From: Candidatus Omnitrophota bacterium
GTDB lineage: Bacteria > Omnitrophota > Gorgyraeia > Gygaellales > Profunditerraquicolaceae
Assembly: GCA_049517335.1 (NCBI GenBank)
Contig: JBEKSD010000002.1
Coordinates: 64,001 to 128,000 of the forward strand
Reading direction: 5' to 3'
DNA length: 64,000 bases
In this document: piece after piece, positions 31,481 to 39,325 of the stretch
Numbering within the stretch: the first letter of the stretch is position 1
Layout: each line of letters starts with the position of its first letter
The notes under the pieces: model-generated
The model's input: the letters and a program-made list of their open reading frames with translations, nothing else
Told to the model about the DNA's origin: nothing
Databases searched by the model: none
Made by a program: the position numbers and the translations under genes

Positions 31481-31945
31481 ATGAAACGAAAAAATATAGT
31501 TCTCGTATTTGTGTCTTTGTGTGTCCTCGTGTTCGCCGGGTGCGCCATGATGCAGCAGGATAAATCCTTAAGCTCTAGTACCTCAACATTAGAGCCGCAG
31601 GCAATGATTAAATTTCCCGATGTCCCTGTTCCCAGCGGTTTCAAAAGCCTACCTAGCCAGTCATATTCCTTTGAAAGCTCGGGCGTGCGGGTCGGAGTCT
31701 TAAAATTCCAGGGAAAAGCTGAAATAGACCAAATCGTGAATTTTTACAAAGAACAGATGGTAATGTATAACTGGAATCTGCTGAATGTAATTGAATACGG
31801 GGACCGCCTCTTGAATTTTGACCGCGAAAATGAAACCTGCGTCATTACCCTGATACCGAAAGGAAAAACGGTTATAATTACTGTTTCTTTGGGGCCGAAA
31901 TCGCAGGCAGTTACTAAAAAAACGAAGAAAGAACCGGTAAAATAA
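31481..31945 (+). CDS. Hypothetical lipoprotein
   Basis: Lipobox FAGC after a hydrophobic signal; GGAGG upstream. Confidence 0.75.
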   Translation: MKRKNIVLVFVSLCVLVFAGCAMMQQDKSLSSSTSTLEPQAMIKFPDVPVPSGFKSLPSQSYSFESSGVRVGVLKFQGKAEIDQIVNFYKEQMVMYNWNLLNVIEYGDRLLNFDRENETCVITLIPKGKTVIITVSLGPKSQAVTKKTKKEPVK

Positions 31946-31973
31946 TATAAGGTGAGAGAAGCGTAAAAAACTC

Positions 31974-32002
31974 TTGACAAACATAGAGTTATGTGATAAA
32001 AA
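31974..32002 (+). promoter_or_regulatory. Putative sigma-70 promoter of the porin gene
   Basis: TTGACA-N17-TAAAAA with extended -10 TG. Confidence 0.5.
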
Positions 32003-32196
32003 GGACATAATATAATTTGGATATACCATTGGAGATGGCTTTAATGTTCGGCGGAAAGGAGGATGAAGCATATAAAATAAGCCGGAGGCCAGAGAAAATC
32101 CAGTGATATACTATAGAAAATATACCTAGGATACAATTGAAGAACCTAGTTAAGTGATATAGTCAAGAATTTTATTTATCAAGGAGGATTAAGCAA

Positions 32197-33621
32197 ATGA
32201 GGAAACATTTAATATTAGTTCTGGCATTAGCGTTAGTAGCCGGCTTAACCGTTGGCGCCTACGCTGAAGTCCAGAATGTAAAGTTAAGCGGAGACCTAAC
32301 AGTCTTGGGCTTATCCCGCGACTTATGGATTACTTCTCACCCCGCTGAAAATACTCTGGCGAGCATTGCCCGTTTAAGAGTTGATGCTGACTTAACGGAT
32401 AATGTCATAGCCACGGTAAGGCTGATCAATGAAAGATATTGGGGAGCAACGATGGAGACAGGAAGTACTTCTACGAGCGATATGTCAGAAAACACCAATA
32501 TTGACCTTGATTTAGCCTATGTAACCTTAAAAGAGTTCCTGTATTCACCGCTGACCTTAACCGTTGGCCGTCAGGAACTGCATTTCGGAAACGATATGAT
32601 TATTGGTGACGCTTATACCAATAACCATGCTTCCAAAGACAGCGTATTCAATAATACCATTGACAAAGATTTAAGTATGCGCAAATCATTTGATGCTATC
32701 CGCGCAACCTTAAATTATGACCCCTTGGTTATTGATGTTGTAGGCGCGCAAATTAGAAAAAACTATACAACTTATACGAATATAGCGGGTTATACAACTA
32801 ATGCCTTAACTAAAGATGACCAGGAAACCCTCATTGGTATGAACGCTAATTACGCTGTTAGTAAAACAACAGACGTAGAAGGTTATTTCTGGAGTAGAAG
32901 AATAGGTAAGGATTCTATTACTGCCGGCAACAAACAAGACACGACCAATGTCGCTGGTGCGCGCATCGTTACCAAACCTATTACAAACTTGACTTACCAA
33001 TTAGAAAGCGCATTTGAGTTTGGTAGAAATACGGTTAATACCAATACTTACACTGACCTGATAACCGCCGCTCCTTCTAAGGACTTGCAGCGCAGGGCTT
33101 GGGCACTTGAAACATCAGCAACTTATGACTTTAAAGACTACAAGAAGATTGGCCAGTATAAGCCGACAGTAACCGCGCTTTATGCTTATTTTAGCGGTGA
33201 CAGAGGTTCCGGAAGCGGTAGCAAAACCAACGGCGCTTGGGATCCGATGTATGAAAACCAGAAGTTCGGCGACATCGCCAATGCAGCATTCAACATGAGC
33301 GACGGACACACAGCAGGCGGTATCGTAACAATGAAGCCTGTTGATGATGTCATGTTAAAAGGCGAATATTATGCTTTTTGGTTGGATAAGAGATATGCCG
33401 ATGGCCAGCAAGTTGCCGTAGTAGCAACCGACGAAGTTGCAACGATGACCCATAAGAAATTCGTAGGACAGGAACTTGACCTTTCAGCAACCTATGACTA
33501 CACTGAAGATGTGCAGTTCGGCATCCTCGGTGGTATGTTCTTCACCGGCTCAGCTCTCGCAAAAGATAACAACCGTAATGTGGCAAGTGAAGTTATTGGT
33601 TCAATGAAGGTAACATTCTAA
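32197..33621 (+). CDS. Outer-membrane beta-barrel protein (alginate-export-like family), probable major porin
   Basis: Signal peptide ending AYA, LTVGRQEL.FG motif, alternating beta pattern, C-terminal Phe, strong RBS and own terminator. Confidence 0.8.
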   Translation: MRKHLILVLALALVAGLTVGAYAEVQNVKLSGDLTVLGLSRDLWITSHPAENTLASIARLRVDADLTDNVIATVRLINERYWGATMETGSTSTSDMSENTNIDLDLAYVTLKEFLYSPLTLTVGRQELHFGNDMIIGDAYTNNHASKDSVFNNTIDKDLSMRKSFDAIRATLNYDPLVIDVVGAQIRKNYTTYTNIAGYTTNALTKDDQETLIGMNANYAVSKTTDVEGYFWSRRIGKDSITAGNKQDTTNVAGARIVTKPITNLTYQLESAFEFGRNTVNTNTYTDLITAAPSKDLQRRAWALETSATYDFKDYKKIGQYKPTVTALYAYFSGDRGSGSGSKTNGAWDPMYENQKFGDIANAAFNMSDGHTAGGIVTMKPVDDVMLKGEYYAFWLDKRYADGQQVAVVATDEVATMTHKKFVGQELDLSATYDYTEDVQFGILGGMFFTGSALAKDNNRNVASEVIGSMKVTF

Positions 33622-33638
33622 TAAAAGTTATGTAACAT

Positions 33639-33678
33639 AAAAAAGCCCTTGGGGGCGTAAGTCTCCGAGGGCTTTTTT
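33639..33678 (+). terminator. Intrinsic terminator
   Basis: AAAAAAGCCCTTGGGGGC-GTAA-GTCTCCGAGGGCTTTTTT hairpin with G-U pairs on +. Confidence 0.88.
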
Positions 33679-33690
33679 ATTACCCATTAT

Positions 33691-35256
33691 ATGCTATATC
33701 TTGCTTTCATCTTCCACATGCACCAGCCATACTATAAGGATCTCCTCACCCAAGAGGCAGAGCTTCCGTGGGTGCGGCTGCACGGGGTCAAGGATTACCT
33801 TGATATGGTGCAAATCTTGGGGCAATTCCCGAAAATTAAACAGAACTTTAACCTTGTCCCGTCACTACTGGAACAAATTGAAGGCTACGCAAACGACACT
33901 TTAAAAGATAAATTCCTTCAATTATCCTCTAAGCCCACAAATGAGCTCAGTTCTTCCGATCAACAATTCATACTTGATAATTTCTTTTCTATAAATATAG
34001 AGAAAGTCATCGCAACGCACCCGCGGTATTATGCTCTCTATTTTAAGCGCCTTAATAAAGAACAATTTACTGAACAGAACTTTTTAGACCTGCAGGTTTG
34101 GTTTAATTTAGCCTGGATTGACCCCTCATTTAGAAATGAGATAGCTGAATTAAAGAAACTTATACGCAAGGCCCGTTTTTTTAGCGAAGAAGACAAGCAG
34201 GTTGTTTTAAGCAAACAGGCTGAAATCCTACAAAATATAATCCCTGTGTATAAAAAATTTATGCAGTCAAAACAGGTTGAATTCACGGTAACGCCTTATT
34301 ACCACCCCATTCTGCCGCTTCTCTATAATACAAACATAGCAAAGGAAGCTAACAGCAAAACCATCCTGCCAAAAGTTAAATTTTCTTATCCGCAGGACGC
34401 AGAAACCCAGATAAATTTAGCGGTTGATTACTTCAAAGCAAAATTCGGCTCAGCACCAGTTGGTATGTGGCCATCTGAACAGGCGATAAGCGAACACATA
34501 TTGCCTTACATAATTAAATCCGGAATAAAATGGATTGTCTTGGATGAAGCGATATTATTTAAGTCCCTAAGAAGAAAAAAGAGGGATACTAACCTGCTTT
34601 ACCAGCCGCATTTTATAAAGAGAGAGGAAGGTGAGCTTTCAATAGTATTCCGCGACAGGAATTTATCAGATTTAATCGGATTTGTATACCATAAGTGGAC
34701 AGCGGAAAACGCAGTTTCAGATTTTATCAGGCACCTTGAGGAGATTGCCTCAAGTTTTAAAGACAGGGATATTTTGGTAACTATTGCTATGGACGGGGAA
34801 AACGCGTGGGAATATTATTCAAATGACGGGCATGATTTCCTTCAGCTGCTTTATCAGAGGCTTTCGGAATCAAAGATGATTCAAACAACAACGGTAAGCG
34901 AATATTTGAATCTTAAGCCTACTGCATTAAAAATTGACAGGCTTGCCGCCGGCTCATGGATTTTTGGGGAATTCGGAAAATGGATAGGCAATCCGAAAAA
35001 GGCGAAAGCGTGGGAATACCTTGCTAAAGCCAGGCAAGAGCTAGAAGAAATCAGAACAGGAATTAATTCCAGCTCCGCCAATATAAACTTCGAACTTGCA
35101 TGGAAACAAATGTATATTTTAGAGGGGAGCGACTGGTTCTGGTGGTTTGGCGAGGATCCCGATGGCAGTTTTGACCGCCTTTTCCGCAGGCATTTAACAA
35201 ACTTCTATAATATAATAGGTAAGGAAGCCCCAGAATATACAACTCGCCCCTTATAA
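33691..35256 (+). CDS. Glycoside hydrolase family 57 (amylopullulanase-like)
   Basis: HMHQP, YHPILPLL, GMWPSE (nucleophile), DGENAWE (acid/base) and EGSDWFWW motifs. Confidence 0.93.
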   Translation: MLYLAFIFHMHQPYYKDLLTQEAELPWVRLHGVKDYLDMVQILGQFPKIKQNFNLVPSLLEQIEGYANDTLKDKFLQLSSKPTNELSSSDQQFILDNFFSINIEKVIATHPRYYALYFKRLNKEQFTEQNFLDLQVWFNLAWIDPSFRNEIAELKKLIRKARFFSEEDKQVVLSKQAEILQNIIPVYKKFMQSKQVEFTVTPYYHPILPLLYNTNIAKEANSKTILPKVKFSYPQDAETQINLAVDYFKAKFGSAPVGMWPSEQAISEHILPYIIKSGIKWIVLDEAILFKSLRRKKRDTNLLYQPHFIKREEGELSIVFRDRNLSDLIGFVYHKWTAENAVSDFIRHLEEIASSFKDRDILVTIAMDGENAWEYYSNDGHDFLQLLYQRLSESKMIQTTTVSEYLNLKPTALKIDRLAAGSWIFGEFGKWIGNPKKAKAWEYLAKARQELEEIRTGINSSSANINFELAWKQMYILEGSDWFWWFGEDPDGSFDRLFRRHLTNFYNIIGKEAPEYTTRPL

Positions 35257-35266
35257 CAGTAAACTA

Positions 35267-35295
35267 TTGACAGACAATGAGTTTTATGCTATAAA
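35267..35295 (+). promoter_or_regulatory. sigma-70 promoter, probably leaderless transcript
   Basis: TTGACA-N17-TATAAA with extended TG; ATG follows 8 nt later with no SD. Confidence 0.7.
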
Positions 35296-35303
35296 AAGCC
35301 GAT

Positions 35304-35867
35304 ATGGATAAGAAGGATATTTACGAGCATCTGGCTAAAATATATCTTGATGCTTCGTCCACAAAAAAGAAGAAAAATAAAGTTTACTCCAAAATATTCA
35401 AAAATCTTTTCTTAATCAGCCTTGTGTGTGTTTTTGGATTATCCACCGTTTTGCTTTCAAATTTACGCAGGCCTAAGATAAATAATTCTGAAGTTGCCCT
35501 CATCTTGGCTCCTGAAGCCTTAAAAATCAACTTTAATTTTGACCCCGCTAAAAAAGAAACTCTTACCCTTGATTTAAACCGACTTAATTTAAACAATTAC
35601 AAAAGAATCGCCTTTTCGGTAAAGAAACTGGATATTTCCAACACAATCGCTTTAAGGGTTGAATTTATAAGCGCGTATAAAGAAAGATCGGAAGTTTACC
35701 TGAAAAATATCCCTAGCAAATGGCAGGATTATACGTTTAATCTTTCTGATTTTAAGAATATAACTGATTGGTCGGAAACAAAAAATTTATCTTTTACGGT
35801 TGAAGAATGGAATACGAAAGAGAATAAAGGAATAGTTTATATAGATAACGTTAGAGTATTAAAATAG
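35304..35867 (+). CDS. Single-TM protein with a C-terminal carbohydrate-binding-like (CBM11/CIA30-like) beta-sandwich
   Basis: Basic patch plus TM helix; DL..Y..I.F.VK, W..Y...LSDF and G.VYIDNV patterns. Confidence 0.6.
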   Translation: MDKKDIYEHLAKIYLDASSTKKKKNKVYSKIFKNLFLISLVCVFGLSTVLLSNLRRPKINNSEVALILAPEALKINFNFDPAKKETLTLDLNRLNLNNYKRIAFSVKKLDISNTIALRVEFISAYKERSEVYLKNIPSKWQDYTFNLSDFKNITDWSETKNLSFTVEEWNTKENKGIVYIDNVRVLK

Positions 35868-35880
35868 AGAGGAGTGTTAG

Positions 35881-37017
35881 ATGCGTATAATCTGCGTCAC
35901 CAATCAAAAGGGCGGGTGCGGTAAAACCACGACAGCGATTAATCTGGCTGCGTCTTTATCCTTAAATGACAGGAAAGTATTGCTAATTGACCTTGACCCG
36001 CAGGCGCACGCTACTTTAGGCCTGAATATAAAAGCAGACTTAAGCATCTATAACGTCTTATCCAAAATTACCAGTAAGAAAGCTCAGCTGGAAGAAATCA
36101 TTAAAAACGTAAACCCTAATTTTGACATAGCGCCTTCTGGCATGATTTTGAGCACCTTAGAACAGGAGTTGGCAGGAGAAATCGGAAGGGAATCGTGCCT
36201 AAACGATACCATTAACAATTTTAAGGGCTCTTACGATTACCTGATAATTGATTCGCCCCCCAATCTGGGGATTTTGACGGTTAACGCCATACGCGCCTCA
36301 AGCGAGGTAATCATCCCGGTTGAAGCAAGCCGTTTTTCCCTGGAAGGAGTGTCCCAGCTTTTAAGTATTATTGAATTGATTAAAGACCGCCTGAACCATA
36401 AGGTCAGGCAGCGGGTTTTAGTCGCTAATTTTGATTCGCGCCTAAGGCATTCGTTTGAAATGCTGAATAAGATAAAAGCTGATTTTAAGGATATATTGTT
36501 CAGCAATATTGTGCACGTAAACGTAAAACTGAAAGAAGCGCAAAATTCGGGGACGCATATTTTCAATTTTGACAAGTATTGCCGGGGCGCCAAAGATTAT
36601 TTCAGCCTGAGCCGGGAAATTATCACCGCGGAAACCGAAGTTCCTGAAAAATTCCCCACGGAGCTTAAGGATATTGTAAAAAGATTCACCGAGAAAAAAA
36701 TGGCTAAGGTGGAAAAACGCCTTAACGAGATATTAAAGGAGGAACTGCCTAAGCTTAATGAAGTGGTGTTTTCAGTATCCGCACCGGCCGCAAAAGAGGT
36801 ATTCCTTGTTGGTGAATTCAATAATTGGAAGGCGGATGAATCCGGGAAGATGAATAATGTTGACGGGACCTGGATAAAAAGCCTCATGCTTCATCCGGGG
36901 AAATACCGTTACCGCTTTATCATTGACGGCTCCTGGACAGAGGATGAAAAGAACCCGCTTAAAGAAAGCAACCCTTTCGGTACGCTTGACTCATTTGTTG
37001 AGGTAGAAAAAGCATGA
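35881..37017 (+). CDS. ParA/Soj-family ATPase fused to a C-terminal glycogen-binding CBM48/AMPK-beta-like domain
   Basis: Deviant Walker A NQKGGCGKTT, DLDPQ, IDSPP; C-terminal VVFSV.AP.AKEVFLVGEFNNW...W...L.PGKYRYRFIIDG.W..D..NP. Confidence 0.88.
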   Translation: MRIICVTNQKGGCGKTTTAINLAASLSLNDRKVLLIDLDPQAHATLGLNIKADLSIYNVLSKITSKKAQLEEIIKNVNPNFDIAPSGMILSTLEQELAGEIGRESCLNDTINNFKGSYDYLIIDSPPNLGILTVNAIRASSEVIIPVEASRFSLEGVSQLLSIIELIKDRLNHKVRQRVLVANFDSRLRHSFEMLNKIKADFKDILFSNIVHVNVKLKEAQNSGTHIFNFDKYCRGAKDYFSLSREIITAETEVPEKFPTELKDIVKRFTEKKMAKVEKRLNEILKEELPKLNEVVFSVSAPAAKEVFLVGEFNNWKADESGKMNNVDGTWIKSLMLHPGKYRYRFIIDGSWTEDEKNPLKESNPFGTLDSFVEVEKA

Positions 37018-37340
37018 ACGCTGGAAGAGAAGAAAAAGAGATACAGGAGGGAAAGTTTTTTGCCATAATTTCGTATTTAAGCTTCCTGTGTATAATTAGC
37101 CTTGTCTTAAAAAAAGACAACAAATTTTCCCTTTATCATGCCAAGCAGGGCCTTGTGCTCTTTGTTTTTGAAGTCGGCTCTTTCATATTAACCATTATCC
37201 CTATTTTGGGAGGCGTAGTGAGGGTACTCAGCCTGATAATTTTTATCCTTGCTTCCCTTTGGTGTATCTTGCAGGTTTTAATGGGCAATTACAACCGTCT
37301 GCCCGTAATCTCAGAGATAGCGGATAATATTACAATTTAA
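37014..37340 (+). CDS. DUF4870-like small membrane protein
   Basis: A.ISYL, HAKQGLVLF and Y.RLPVI pattern; three hydrophobic segments. Confidence 0.7.
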   Translation: MNAGREEKEIQEGKFFAIISYLSFLCIISLVLKKDNKFSLYHAKQGLVLFVFEVGSFILTIIPILGGVVRVLSLIIFILASLWCILQVLMGNYNRLPVISEIADNITI

Positions 37341-37351
37341 GGAGGTGGGAT

Positions 37352-37723
37352 ATGCCTTCAAAAAAGAAAACAATAGGAAAAAAAACGGTAAAGAAAAAGG
37401 CAGTAAAGAGGAAACCGGCTGGGAAAAAAACAGGTAAGAAAACGGTTAGGAAAGTGCCTGTTGTAAAAAAACCGAAAAAAGAACCCATCATAGGTAAAGT
37501 AACGCATTATTTCCCGCACGTACGCGCGGCTGTAATCAAATTAAAGGCGCCCTTGGCAGTAGGAGATACCGTAAAAATTAAAGGCCACACAACGGATTTT
37601 AACCAGAGAGTCTCATCCTTACAGATAGACCGCACGCCAATAACCGAAGCAAAAAAAGGACAGGAGATCGGCCTTCTTGTGGATTCACGGGTAAGGCAAC
37701 ATGATGTGGTAATCAAAATTTAA
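37352..37723 (+). CDS. Translation-factor-like beta-barrel (U32 C-terminal-like) protein with Lys-rich N-terminus
   Basis: IGKVTHYF...AAVI.L...L.VGD.VKIKGHTTDF.Q.V.SLQI motif preceded by a ~44-aa polybasic tail. Confidence 0.75.
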   Translation: MPSKKKTIGKKTVKKKAVKRKPAGKKTGKKTVRKVPVVKKPKKEPIIGKVTHYFPHVRAAVIKLKAPLAVGDTVKIKGHTTDFNQRVSSLQIDRTPITEAKKGQEIGLLVDSRVRQHDVVIKI

Positions 37724-37744
37724 ACAACAGGAGGGGAGTCAGCT

Positions 37745-37927
37745 ATGAGGCTTTTGGCAATTGAAAAGAAAGCGAAGGATTTAGGTATCACTGATACCTG
37801 GAAATACTCCAAGAGTGACTTAATTAAGCTTATCCAGAAGAAAGAAGGCAATCAGGAGTGTTTTGCCACAAAATCGCGTTCAAAATGCAACCAGTTTATT
37901 TGCTGCTGGAGGGCTGACTGCACATGA
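37745..37927 (+). CDS. Small SAP/Rho-N-like protein with a Cys cluster
   Basis: K.DLIK.IQ..EGN..CF...C....CCWR.DC pattern; GGAGG RBS. Confidence 0.7.
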   Translation: MRLLAIEKKAKDLGITDTWKYSKSDLIKLIQKKEGNQECFATKSRSKCNQFICCWRADCT

Positions 37928-38109
37928 AATATCGCTGCCAGATCTGTGACAGGGATATTGACGATTATGTCAGCATTGCCCATATAAAGGCCGAAGAATA
38001 TCTTATTGATCTTATTCAAAAAGACCATCCGGAATGGCACGAAAGCAAGAAAACCTGCCATAAATGTATCGAATATTACCGAAAATTAGTTAAAGAAAAC
38101 GAAATTTAG
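37924..38109 (+). CDS. Small putative zinc-binding protein
   Basis: CxxC, HPEW and CxxC motifs; ATGA overlap with the upstream gene. Confidence 0.6.
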   Translation: MKYRCQICDRDIDDYVSIAHIKAEEYLIDLIQKDHPEWHESKKTCHKCIEYYRKLVKENEI

Positions 38110-38114
38110 ACAAT

Positions 38115-38148
38115 AAACCGGGGTCGGAATTAATTCCGACCCCGGTTT
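38115..38148. repeat. 34-bp perfect REP-like palindrome (may double as a terminator)
   Basis: AAACCGGGGTCGGAATTAATTCCGACCCCGGTTT. Confidence 0.85.
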
Positions 38149-38161
38149 TTAACCTTATTTC

Positions 38162-38175
38162 TGAGTATATACTCA
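38162..38175. promoter_or_regulatory. Palindromic putative operator upstream of the DUF134 gene
   Basis: TGAGTATATACTCA, perfect 14-bp palindrome 43 nt before the ATG. Confidence 0.55.
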
Positions 38176-38218
38176 TATTAACCCCAGCGTTAAAAGTAAG
38201 TAAGTTCGAGTAAAGTAA

Positions 38219-38557
38219 ATGCAGTTACAAGGAAGGCCCAAAAAATATAGGATTGTGCGCACAGACCCCAAAATTAGCCAATTTAGCCCAAGGGGCCGTC
38301 CAGGAAGGCCTAATGAAGCGGATCTCACTATGGATGAGTACGAAGCCATACGGCTTTCAGATTATATGGGATTATCCCAGAAAGAAGCCAGCCAATCAAT
38401 GCACATATCCCAGCAAACTTTCAGCAGAATCCTGAAAAAGGCCCGGAAAACAATAGCAAAAGGGCTGATTGACGGAGCAACTATAAAGATTCAGGGCGGC
38501 CAGTACGTAGTTACATCCCACAAAGATTTCCAACCAAATTCCTACAAAAAACTCTAA
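38219..38557 (+). CDS. DUF134 family HTH DNA-binding protein
   Basis: RPKK.R, DEYEAIRL.DY.GLSQ.EA..M.IS..TF.RIL..ARK.IA and I.I.GG pattern. Confidence 0.88.
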   Translation: MQLQGRPKKYRIVRTDPKISQFSPRGRPGRPNEADLTMDEYEAIRLSDYMGLSQKEASQSMHISQQTFSRILKKARKTIAKGLIDGATIKIQGGQYVVTSHKDFQPNSYKKL

Positions 38558-38639
38558 AATTCCGGTAAATACAAGTAAACAACTATAGACGCTGAGCCTC
38601 AAAAGCGGTCGACTTGGTACCAAAATCGCTATTTGCTCA

Positions 38640-38667
38640 ACTTCCTATAATATACATTATGTTAACT
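38640..38667. other. dif chromosome dimer resolution site (XerC/XerD)
   Basis: ACTTCCTATAA-TATACA-TTATGTTAACT, 11-6-11 layout close to Firmicute dif; intergenic, at the convergence of + and - gene blocks. Confidence 0.88.
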
Positions 38668-38842
38668 TGATGATATTGAGAAAATTACCTTATCTTATTC
38701 TATCCCAATAGGTTATATTATATTGTTTTTATGCTGTGGATAAGTCAAAAACCGTTTCCTTAAACTTACTTCTTTTTTAAAAGGTTGATATTCCGGTGGG
38801 ATTACTTTCATTTTCCTATAAGGTTTTTTTGCGTTTAATCGC

Positions 38843-39268
38843 TTATTTCATCTTGCGGGTAAAACTGACTATGGCAGGATAGATTGAGTTTTCTCCAAAG
38901 CGGTCGCGTTAATCCGGTCTACGGCTTTCAATAAGCCCTCCCTCCGTTTTTGCTCAAAAAACAAGACAGGGTAGCTTTCTCGGCAAAGCTCCCACTCCCA
39001 GAGCCCTGATTTCAGGGGTTCTAGGGCCTGTTTTAGCCAGTATTTTAAGGGATCTCTGGAAATCCCTATAACTTCATTGATTGCATGAGTCGAAGTTTTC
39101 TGAGCTGAAAAACTGCCTATTTCCGGGCCATTTAGCCAAAGATGAATGGTAAAACTAAGGAGATTTTGCTCCCTGAGCTGCCTGGTAACCATAACCTATC
39201 CAGGCTCTTATAAATTGGGGGTTTCTGGAACCACTAGGAAAGGTATACGAGTGGCCAATTGACTTGGG
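38843..39268 (-). pseudogene. dinB: Frameshifted 3' remnant of DNA polymerase IV (little-finger domain and C-terminus)
   Basis: Pieces in different frames: PKSIGHSYTFP, RQLREQNL..FTIHLWL, PEIRALGV, KAVDRIN / DRFGENSIYPA; catalytic N-terminus absent. Confidence 0.8.
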
Positions 39269-39282
39269 TAAACCGGGGTCAG
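39269..39282. repeat. Left 14-bp inverted repeat (REP-like arm)
   Basis: TAAACCGGGGTCAG, exact reverse complement of 42428-42441 and near-identical to the arm of 38115-38148. Confidence 0.7.
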
Positions 39283-39325
39283 AGTCTAAGGGTTCTAACT
39301 CTAATTAATGCGTAAAATCATTTGA

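Follow-up and report, generated by a model that had tools for sequence, protein, structure and literature searches.

A ParA-type ATPase fused to a CBM48-type module in Omnitrophota: a candidate tether between storage glucan and the nucleoid

ParA/MinD ATPases provide bacteria with a general means of placing chromosomes, plasmids, carboxysomes, chemoreceptor arrays and division sites. McdA, which positions carboxysomes, and PpfA/ParC, which position chemoreceptor arrays, act through a separate, activating adaptor borne by the cargo and, to our knowledge, a separate adaptor marks the cargo in every case studied. A related concept, the attachment of PHB/PHA storage granules to the nucleoid for inheritance by both daughter cells, is embodied by PhaM and PhaF, which we take to be passive DNA-binding phasins without an ATPase cycle. 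The locus described here encodes a ParA-type ATPase that bears a carbohydrate-binding module (CBM) of its own and has no sequence relationship to those phasins. It lies in a stretch of 64,000 nucleotides, hereafter the window, from a Candidatus Omnitrophota bacterium (GenBank assembly GCA_049517335.1, contig JBEKSD010000002.1, positions 64,001 to 128,000 of the forward strand); coordinates below are those of the window, and the features described between 32197 and 37723 lie on its + strand. The gene (35881..37017), identified from the open reading frame (ORF) list and by Pfam, encodes a protein of 378 amino acids, ParA-CBM, composed of a ParA/Soj-type ATPase domain (residues 1-251, 35881..36633), a helical and poorly conserved linker (residues 252-292, 36634..36756) and a module of the CBM48/AMPK-beta type (residues 293-378, 36757..37014). 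We tentatively read ParA-CBM, at somewhat less than an even chance, as a housekeeping, ATP-switched tether that would link storage alpha-glucan particles to the nucleoid and be reset by a membrane partner.

In common with the chromosomal ParA/Soj proteins of ParABS systems, ParA-CBM possesses the deviant Walker A, A' and B motifs and the basic DNA-binding positions, and its neighbour, like ParB, bears a peptide that could act on the ATPase. It differs from them in being an extra copy, in its added C-terminal linker and CBM48 and in implying no parS site, whilst the partner, unlike ParB, is a membrane protein without a ParB_N, helix-turn-helix or CTPase domain. Like McdA and PpfA/ParC, ParA-CBM is an orphan ATPase of the ParA family, of the kind believed to distribute non-DNA cargo over the nucleoid as a matrix; whereas the cargo adaptor of those systems is separate and activating, here the cargo module is fused and the putative activator is a membrane protein. 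Membership of the McdA group itself is not indicated, as the match to McdA (PDB 6NOO) has an E-value of 5e-15 against about 1e-50 for Soj-type proteins, and no McdB or carboxysome context was recognised among the neighbours by Pfam. With the CBMs of AMPK beta, SEX4 and LSF1 the C-terminal module shares the same Pfam families above cut-off and the tryptophan platforms of the FNNW and DGxW motifs; it differs from them in being fused to a ParA rather than to a kinase scaffold or a phosphatase, and in having Arg, Lys or Gln at the position of the AMPK lysine.

The architecture is not new. A preprint (bioRxiv 10.64898/2026.10.19.760177, 22 Oct 2026) catalogues a 'CBM-containing system' (ParA-CBM, ConB5) and, in the passages that concern it, reads it as an immune sensor, on the grounds that the system is 'sporadically distributed' and its CBM shows 'rapid divergence'. 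Two neighbourhood variants are described there, the first with an upstream single-transmembrane (TM) protein carrying a second, periplasmic CBM and the second with a second, inactive ParA and an inactive restriction endonuclease (REase). These passages describe the same combination of ParA with a C-terminal AMPK1_CBM; the locus in the window corresponds to variant 1, and a set of loci from other phyla, found independently and termed class B below, to variant 2. The preprint's text contains no occurrence of 'Omnitrophota', and the passages of it that were searched hold no proposal of glycogen tethering; across the full-text literature searched, the fusion was mentioned only in this preprint and no proposal of ParA-mediated glycogen positioning was found. 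The statement in the initial annotation that no characterised example is known therefore holds for experiment, but the architecture had been catalogued. In contrast to the sporadic, fast-evolving system of the preprint's passages, the Omnitrophota gene is widespread and syntenic with a conserved CBM, and the published immune interpretation is contradicted for this phylum.

The ATPase domain matches Pfam AAA_31 over residues 1-175 (E 1.7e-53). An AlphaFold2 model of ParA-CBM, made with a 58-sequence alignment, has a mean predicted local distance difference test score (pLDDT) of 91.4, with the ParA core at residues 1-251 above 90. The closest solved relatives of this domain are 8RAY (E 1.7e-50), which passages of PMC12462528 describe as the M. 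xanthus ParA-ATP dimer, HpSoj (2.2e-39) and TtSoj (8.2e-38), and the alignment with these three proteins is almost free of gaps across 250 residues. Residues K10, K15, D39 and D124, belonging to the Walker A motif with its signature lysine, Walker A' and Walker B, are each present in 77/77 family sequences. The DNA-binding residues of HpSoj have been equated with R182/R194/R208/R211 of TtSoj and R189/K201/R215/R218 of BsSoj, of which R189 and R218 matter for nucleoid binding according to the mutagenesis passages of PMC6393308. By alignment, the four TtSoj residues map to R187, K199, V213 and K216 of ParA-CBM. Lysine or arginine occupies position 187 in all 77 sequences, position 199 in 67, position 216 in 64 and position 218 in 72. 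As judged from the alignment, conserved basic residues thus occupy three of the four Soj DNA-binding positions, among them the two supported by BsSoj mutagenesis (R187 and K216). The initial annotation had proposed a ParA/Soj domain with a signature-lysine Walker A and basic FDSR and NVKL residues at the Soj DNA-binding sites, and both proposals are borne out, the latter by the alignment of TtSoj R182 and R211 with R187 and K216. By its sequence, the domain is an intact Soj-type ATPase with conserved predicted DNA-binding residues.

ParA-CBM is also an additional ParA. The host genome (1.45 Mb in 31 contigs, 92% complete) encodes, on another contig (C7), a canonical ParA of 263 amino acids directly followed by a ParB of 288 amino acids, which begins with an 'ALGKGISALIP'-type peptide and is the only strong ParB_N match in the genome; no ParB_N was detected by Pfam among the neighbours of ParA-CBM. 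This canonical ParA and the ATPase domain of the fusion share 40% identity. A role for ParA-CBM as the main chromosomal ParA was rejected on the basis of this pair, which leaves it as an orphan without an adjacent parB, as had first been annotated.

The helical linker and CBM48/AMPK-beta-type domain anticipated by the initial annotation are recovered in the model and in Pfam. The linker is modelled as a helix at residues 261-287 with a pLDDT of about 60, and its length within the family ranges from about 45 to about 150 residues, the long variants (6/6 of those fetched) carrying low-complexity linkers of about 100-150 amino acids rich in E, A, K and Q. A connection so variable in length, and of low complexity in its long forms, fits a leash rather than rigid allosteric coupling. 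Beyond it, residues 303-377 match AMPK1_CBM (PF16561; 48.5 bits, cut-off 26.8), within a predicted eight-stranded beta-sandwich (residues 293-375, pLDDT above 90); the module also matches CBM_48 (PF02922; 29 bits, cut-off 22.4). This module aligns to the CBM of AMPK-beta1 (1Z0N, E 1e-10), which we take to be a cyclodextrin complex, pairing FNNW with FNNW and YRYRFIIDGSW with HQYKFFVDGQW; its other relatives in the PDB are starch and glycogen proteins (pullulanase, SEX4, LSF1 and a branching enzyme). F313, W316, Y344, W352 and S371 are found in 77/77 sequences, position 366 is Phe or Tyr in 67/77 and position 370, equivalent to an AMPK asparagine, is Asn or Asp in 76/77; nine CBM columns are invariant among 58 sequences. 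The AMPK residues aligned to these positions contact cyclodextrin. The module keeps both tryptophans aligned with the sugar platforms of AMPK-beta1 (W316 and W352), and glycogen is its probable ligand by homology. The mean identity to ParA-CBM among 38 closer homologues is 69% in the ParA domain, 31% in the linker and 51% in the CBM, and among 38 distant, cross-phylum homologues it is 45%, 11% and 41%, respectively. Across phyla the ATPase and the CBM are therefore under much the same constraint, the linker alone being free in sequence and length.

A different ligand would dissolve the connection to glycogen. The CBM48 fold might serve as a protein-interaction or non-glucan lectin module, in which case ParA-CBM would be an ordinary orphan ParA with another cargo and its link to glycogen spurious. 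We regard this as highly improbable. The ligand is assigned by homology only, the AMPK lysine-equivalent is Gln in a minority of sequences and the asparagine-equivalent alternates between Asn and Asp; some carriers have no GlgA of the PF08323 type, and a glycogen gene adjoins the fusion only in part of the phylum. Against this, both aromatic platforms and the motif around them are invariant, the relatives in Pfam and the PDB are all alpha-glucan binders, and the genome encodes a paralogous stand-alone CBM48 together with a full glycogen pathway. In addition, a glycoside hydrolase of family GH57 neighbours the fusion in many closer loci (counted below), and in one distant locus (L078) the fusion has a stand-alone CBM48 gene next to it.

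The glycogen pathway of the host comprises GlgC (477.6 bits, equivalog cut-off 424.9), a GlgA of 461 amino acids, a phosphorylase of 779 amino acids and a second GH57 protein of 534 amino acids on contig C1 (L015:1456-3060). The latter aligns over its full length with GH57 branching enzymes (PDB 2B5D, E 4e-167; also 3N8T and 1UFA) and matches the NCBIfam branching models at E 1.8e-106, below their cut-offs. As this enzyme is of the branching type, glycogen branching here is probably GH57-based, and by these matches the genome encodes a full pathway of GlgC, GlgA, branching-type GH57 and phosphorylase. The stand-alone CBM48/AMPK1_CBM protein, of 91 amino acids, is encoded on contig C16 (L009:1450-1725; E 1.8e-16), has no signal peptide and is 43% identical to the fused CBM; the ORFs around it have no obvious defence character, no domain search having been made there.

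The distribution of the gene speaks to whether it is a housekeeping or a defence gene. Among 8000 candidates scored, 7023 relatives were found at E<=0.001, not all of which are fusions. All 120 homologues listed at 66-100% identity carry PF16561; 119 of them are 361-388 amino acids long and one is a 309-residue fragment, and those that are named are Omnitrophota. In an even sample of the phylum, a match at E<=1e-50 occurs in 234 of 301 genomes and in 39 of 40 genomes of the same family; by a hand count from the match table, about 191/301 are strong (<=1e-57), while 43 of the 234 fall between 1e-51 and 1e-56 and are probably canonical ParA. Among the matches listed, 134 of 150 rows span the query from residues 1-3 to at least 373, and 14 cover the ParA part only, in ORFs of 342-487 amino acids. 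That these short-coverage matches represent a ParA with a different C-terminus was rejected for the 6 of the 14 that were fetched, all of which carry the CBM after a long linker. Identity to ParA-CBM declines in steps as kinship becomes more remote, as expected for vertical descent: it is about 61-73% for members of the same family, 58-61% at the level of the order, 40-58% at that of the class and 35-44% at that of the phylum. A search with the linker and CBM found nothing in 72,556 plasmid and 50,697 phage records, collections that are biased to cultured hosts. ParA-CBM is inherited as a housekeeping gene in Omnitrophota. One genome per species was considered for the comparison of loci, in which 584 candidate stretches encode a relative; the best 80 loci were taken, and complete two-domain ORFs are present in 76 of these. 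The carriers among them include entries labelled Rokubacteria, Myxococcota, 'delta proteobacterium', Phycisphaerae/Planctomycetota, Eisenbacteria, Thermodesulfobacteriota and Auribacter. Neighbours, as given below, were counted in 41 closer loci (L022-L062) and 39 distant loci.

Several of the distant loci differ in their second component. In the class-B loci (L070, L072, L073, L078, L096 and L099), a downstream gene starts with a ParB-like LGRGL motif, 'LGRGLEDVSHLFLS', and in L070, L073 and L078 this gene runs on into a second, degenerate MinD/ParA-like domain; the downstream gene is in turn followed by a third, REase-like gene for a protein of 188-266 amino acids without a Pfam family. In L072 and L078 this third protein weakly matches the PADLOC candidates PDC-S18 and PDC-S11. 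Secreted proteins with a P_proprotein (proprotein convertase P) domain are encoded after the fusion in three further loci of Phycisphaerae/Planctomycetota type (L092, L094 and L098), where neither the TM partner nor an LGRGL-type partner was recognised nearby.

It is against this distribution that the immune model has to be set. As presented in the relevant passages of the preprint, ConB5 is a conflict system whose lectin-like CBMs detect infection-associated carbohydrates or the depletion of polysaccharide, upon which ParA would multimerise on DNA and limit the invader. We consider this improbable, and what likelihood we allow it is kept mainly for the class-B variants in other phyla. In support of it, the passages of the preprint describe both the architecture and the two neighbourhood variants, the fusion is patchy outside Omnitrophota, the periplasmic domain of the partner is much less conserved than its peptide, the class-B REase-like gene has its weak resemblance to defence candidates and ParA-CBM itself weakly matches PADLOC mad8 (4.5e-7). 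In Omnitrophota, however, the gene is not sporadic and its identity tracks kinship; the CBM does not evolve fast, its 41% mean identity across phyla standing beside 45% for ParA; the synteny is that of housekeeping genes in a 1.45-Mb genome without a defence-island signal; and the plasmid and phage records held no copy. The PADLOC matches, moreover, are to generic P-loop or nuclease folds, and among 29 ORFs of the window PADLOC returned generic-domain matches only (a sigma factor to MzaA, an ABC ATPase to mad3 and ParA-CBM to mad8).

The most constant companion of ParA-CBM is the gene directly upstream (35304..35867 in the ORF list), which encodes a protein of 187 amino acids without a Pfam family above cut-off; a homologue occupies this position in 41/41 closer loci. 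Its AlphaFold2 model has a mean pLDDT of 89.2, with helices at residues 3-17 and 29-54, the latter transmembrane (35388..35465; hydrophobic window from residue 34), and a beta-sandwich at residues 65-186 (35496..35861) modelled at a pLDDT above 95. A Foldseek search of the PDB with this jelly-roll domain gave CBM11 6R31 as the best match (E 2.7e-7, TMq 0.47), followed by CBM30, CBM4, CBM28 and CBM16, with identities of 12-18% that indicate likeness at the level of fold only. The single-TM protein with a CBM-like sandwich anticipated upstream by the initial annotation is thereby corroborated. The charge flanking the TM helix is +5.7 on the N-terminal side and +1.6 on the C-terminal side (41 sequences), which orients the partner in the inner membrane with a cytoplasmic N-terminal peptide and a periplasmic CBM-like domain.

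The N-terminal peptide (residues 1-28, 35304..35387), a short helix and a Lys-rich stretch, is the best-conserved segment of the partner: among 40 sequences A11 is invariant, and M1, Y7, H9, L10, Y14 and L15 are conserved in at least 90%. The periplasmic domain is far less conserved (24-61% identity overall), with E127, W140, F164, E167, W169 and N170 invariant, and the sequence of the TM helix is not conserved. Nine of the 39 distant loci encode, upstream of the fusion, a single-TM protein of 55-304 amino acids whose N-terminus shares the core of 'EHLAKIYL' in the window's partner, '[E/Q]xLA[D/K][I/T]Y[F/L]'; the 'LGRGLEDVSHLFLS' of the class-B partners is related to it. The peptide resembles the N-terminal hydrophobic and basic peptide of ParB described in passages of PMC12462528, and by analogy it may activate the ParA ATPase, making it a candidate ParA-binding or -activating motif. 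Two copies of the ParA domain (residues 1-255) were co-folded with ATP and partner residues 1-34 in three runs and with three controls, giving a score of 0.36 (runs 0.46, 0.36 and 0.01) against 0.00 for the best control; contacts agreed between runs by at least 68%, and the partner pLDDT was at least 43. Of 80 solved complexes, 58 reach the mark used for this comparison, as do 2 of 110 mismatched pairs; at scores of 0.60 or below, only 7 of the 80 do so, together with both mismatches. As complexes of ParA with ParB peptides have already been solved, such a score may show likeness rather than binding. The co-folding adds a little to the supposition that the peptide binds ParA, which the invariant adjacency and the conservation of the peptide had already made likely. 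The initial suggestion that this peptide may act on ParA is in keeping with its standing as the most conserved segment and has weak support from the co-folding.

Upstream of the partner gene in the window lies a GH57 alpha-glucan hydrolase of 521 amino acids (33691..35256; Pfam Glyco_hydro_57, E 1.2e-66), an assignment in keeping with the first description of the locus. Its best solved relative is 8ZYI/9JLQ (E 6e-89), identified in passages of PMC12106739 as AaApu, a 477-residue GH57 amylopullulanase that hydrolyses glycogen, pullulan and starch. Four of the five conserved regions were mapped in the translation (HMHQP, WPSEQA, DGENAW and EGSDW, with the catalytic Glu of WPxE and Asp of DGEN) and match the AaApu motifs given in those passages. 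The enzyme is predicted to be cytoplasmic, no signal peptide having been seen, and a Thermus-type branching enzyme was rejected as its identity (23.5 bits against a cut-off of 920). Further upstream, a 474-residue outer-membrane beta-barrel porin of the Alginate_exp family (32197..33621; PF13372, E 5.9e-24) forms part of the syntenic context and possibly of the unit. GH57 lies directly upstream of the partner gene in 23 of 37 testable closer loci, and in two more that are cut at contig ends; the porin abuts the partner gene in 9/37, where GH57 is absent, and lies upstream of GH57 in most of the others, and another gene takes the place in 5/37. In one distant locus (L063) a partial GH57 ORF lies about 1.7 kb upstream of the fusion. 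No glycogen enzyme stands beside the fusion in the 39 distant loci, the nearby stand-alone CBM48 gene of L078 being set apart. The conserved neighbourhood expected from the initial annotation therefore holds for the partner, but GH57 is clade-specific and is not the constant neighbour.

This arrangement also invites a model in which the membrane is the destination. ParA-CBM might be a carbohydrate-status switch, or might position a membrane complex, with the membrane partner and its envelope contacts, for example the porin, as cargo or output. In this scenario, nucleoid-bound ParA would position or regulate the complex in the manner of PpfA/ParC, CBM48 would report cytoplasmic glucan and the periplasmic domain external or envelope glycan, and together these would tune the ATPase. 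We hold this to be unlikely, though with a real share of the probability. Activators of ParA normally sit on the cargo, and the peptide-bearing protein here is a membrane protein; its adjacency is invariant where GH57 is dispensable; the porin is conserved upstream and in places abuts the partner gene; both proteins carry folds of carbohydrate-binding type, on opposite sides of the membrane; and the homologous CBM of AMPK has a regulatory role. However, the variable length of the linker, and its disorder in the long forms, argue against allostery between CBM and ATPase, no output domain or regulated target is identifiable, and in other phyla the partners of class B do not lie in the membrane, so that membrane positioning cannot account for the family as a whole.

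In the tether that we favour as the simplest way of uniting these findings, the ATP-bound ParA domains would pair as a sandwich dimer, with R187, K199, K216 and K218 making non-specific contact with nucleoid DNA. Each dimer would display two CBM48 modules on flexible arms, and many dimers could hold a glycogen particle multivalently against the nucleoid, along which the particles would be spread and passed to both daughter cells. The cytoplasmic peptide of the partner would dock at the ParA dimer in the manner of a ParB peptide and stimulate ATP hydrolysis, releasing ParA-CBM and its glucan where the nucleoid meets the membrane. The periplasmic CBM-like domain may couple this reset to envelope or external glycan, the most speculative step of the scheme. 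Where GH57 is adjacent, it could represent the degradative side of glycogen turnover, without being an obligate part of the module.

A number of observations weigh against this tether. Because the protein presumed to activate the ATPase sits in the membrane, with its CBM-like domain in the periplasm, glycogen itself would carry no activator, unlike the cargo of ParABS and McdAB, and a granule-spacing diffusion ratchet is not an automatic consequence. The co-folded complex scores weakly, with one of the three runs at 0.01. Of the Soj DNA-binding positions, 213 is basic in 0/77 sequences (V213 in ParA-CBM), and position 345 of the CBM, the Lys of 'YKF' in AMPK, is Gln in 12/77 (Lys or Arg in 65/77). 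In some class-B loci the third gene weakly matches PADLOC defence candidates (best E 5.1e-9; 2/17 neighbour proteins tested). Outside Omnitrophota the fusion is patchy, occurring in 6/101 sampled genomes of the phylum of a Rokubacteria-labelled carrier, and GH57 is adjacent in 0/39 distant loci, being confined to part of the phylum. Co-occurrence with glycogen synthesis offers little help. A GlgA-type domain (PF08323, E<=1e-25) is present in 275/301 genomes of the phylum and, being near-universal, hardly discriminates; some families without the fusion retain it (f12: fusion 0/5, GlgA 5/5; f15: 0/3 and 3/3). Of 20 listed GlgA-negative genomes, six have a strong ParA-CBM match (G169, G205, G220, G258, G290 and G002), the remainder comprising, by hand cross-tabulation, seven with an ambiguous match and seven with none. 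A PF08323 match was found in four of five carriers from other phyla and not in the fifth, a Rokubacteria-labelled carrier. By these counts the fusion is enriched among, yet not restricted to, genomes with a PF08323 synthase, related genomes not being independent; as evidence for the tether, such co-occurrence is weak.

Two ideas of the initial annotation stand in part, then. Its expected co-occurrence with glycogen genes is seen in the full pathway of the host genome but says little across the phylum, where GlgA is near-universal and at least six fusion genomes have no GlgA of the PF08323 type. Its proposal of glycogen-granule positioning retains the orphan ParA, the intact predicted residues, the CBM platforms and the glycogen pathway; set against these are the clade-specific GH57, the membrane-borne activator and the weak co-occurrence. 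As a separate observation on GlgA, members of family f9 (e.g. G055, G266, G073, G008, G230, G173, G185, G270, G286 and G161) have the GlgA domain in ORFs of 1025-1046 amino acids, by their length and domain match a fusion of GlgA with a second half of no assigned identity; ParA-CBM matches in this family number 4/17, all at about 1e-51, and almost none is strong.

Downstream of ParA-CBM, a small membrane protein of 108 amino acids (37014..37340) overlaps the stop of the fusion by 4 nt, as initially described, and is a frequent but not constant companion, with a homologue in 24/38 testable closer loci. Its former label as DUF4870-like could not be upheld: Pfam gave no DUF4870 match at E<=5, and the ORF belongs to no Pfam or NCBIfam family. 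The ORFs of GH57, the TM protein, ParA-CBM and this protein were all borne out at the positions given here. Next follows a protein of 123 amino acids (37352..37723) with a Lys-rich, histone-H1-like or HC2-like N-terminal tail and a barrel resembling domain 2 of EF-Tu (GTP_EFTU_D2 at 21.4 bits, below cut-off); it occurs within 2.2 kb downstream in 32/34 testable closer loci and, to judge from its tail, could be a nucleic-acid-binding companion. Two small overlapping ORFs at 37745-38109, of 60 amino acids (weak Rho_N-like match) and 61 amino acids (two CxxC pairs), keep their place after the locus in many genomes, the latter being 67-85% identical between loci and unusually conserved given its size. 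A scan of 31900-38700 found 10 promoter-like sites where 15.7 were expected and 8 terminator-like sites where 7.6 were expected; with no signal above chance, an operon is suggested by spacing only (a 13-nt gap and the 4-nt overlap). The neighbours in the window are housekeeping genes by Pfam (P-type ATPase, PanB, class II tRNA synthetase, PPDK, sigma-70, APRT, heptosyltransferase, LexA and an ABC transporter), and synteny with APRT, PHP and the porin is kept around ParA-CBM. GC skew is positive to 38000 and negative beyond, with a cumulative maximum at 36-38 kb (region 36000-39300), and the coding strand is + up to 38557 and - from 38869. The switch of skew and strand, soon after the end of the ParA-CBM operon, has the appearance of a replication terminus or of the boundary of an inversion.

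In this family the motor seems to carry its own fused module for cargo recognition, with glycogen as the likely cargo, and no active positioning system for glycogen was found in the literature searched. If the tether model is correct, ParA biology would extend to storage polysaccharides, with a simple two-protein system available for reconstitution; if the immune interpretation in the preprint's passages is correct, a new kind of carbohydrate-sensing defence would have been uncovered. The present data provide a concrete reason to doubt the latter for Omnitrophota, and both readings are directly testable. The family is large, and most of its carriers are uncultured bacteria with small cells, about whose cell biology next to nothing is known. 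It is possible, although on balance doubtful, that it represents the first machine dedicated to partitioning or tethering a storage polysaccharide, built on a ParA with an integral CBM48 adaptor that is reset by an inner-membrane protein reading envelope or external glycan, core to most Omnitrophota and recurring in several other phyla. Were this so, the supply of carbohydrate outside the cell would have a physical link to the places in which glycogen is stored, set free and passed on within it.

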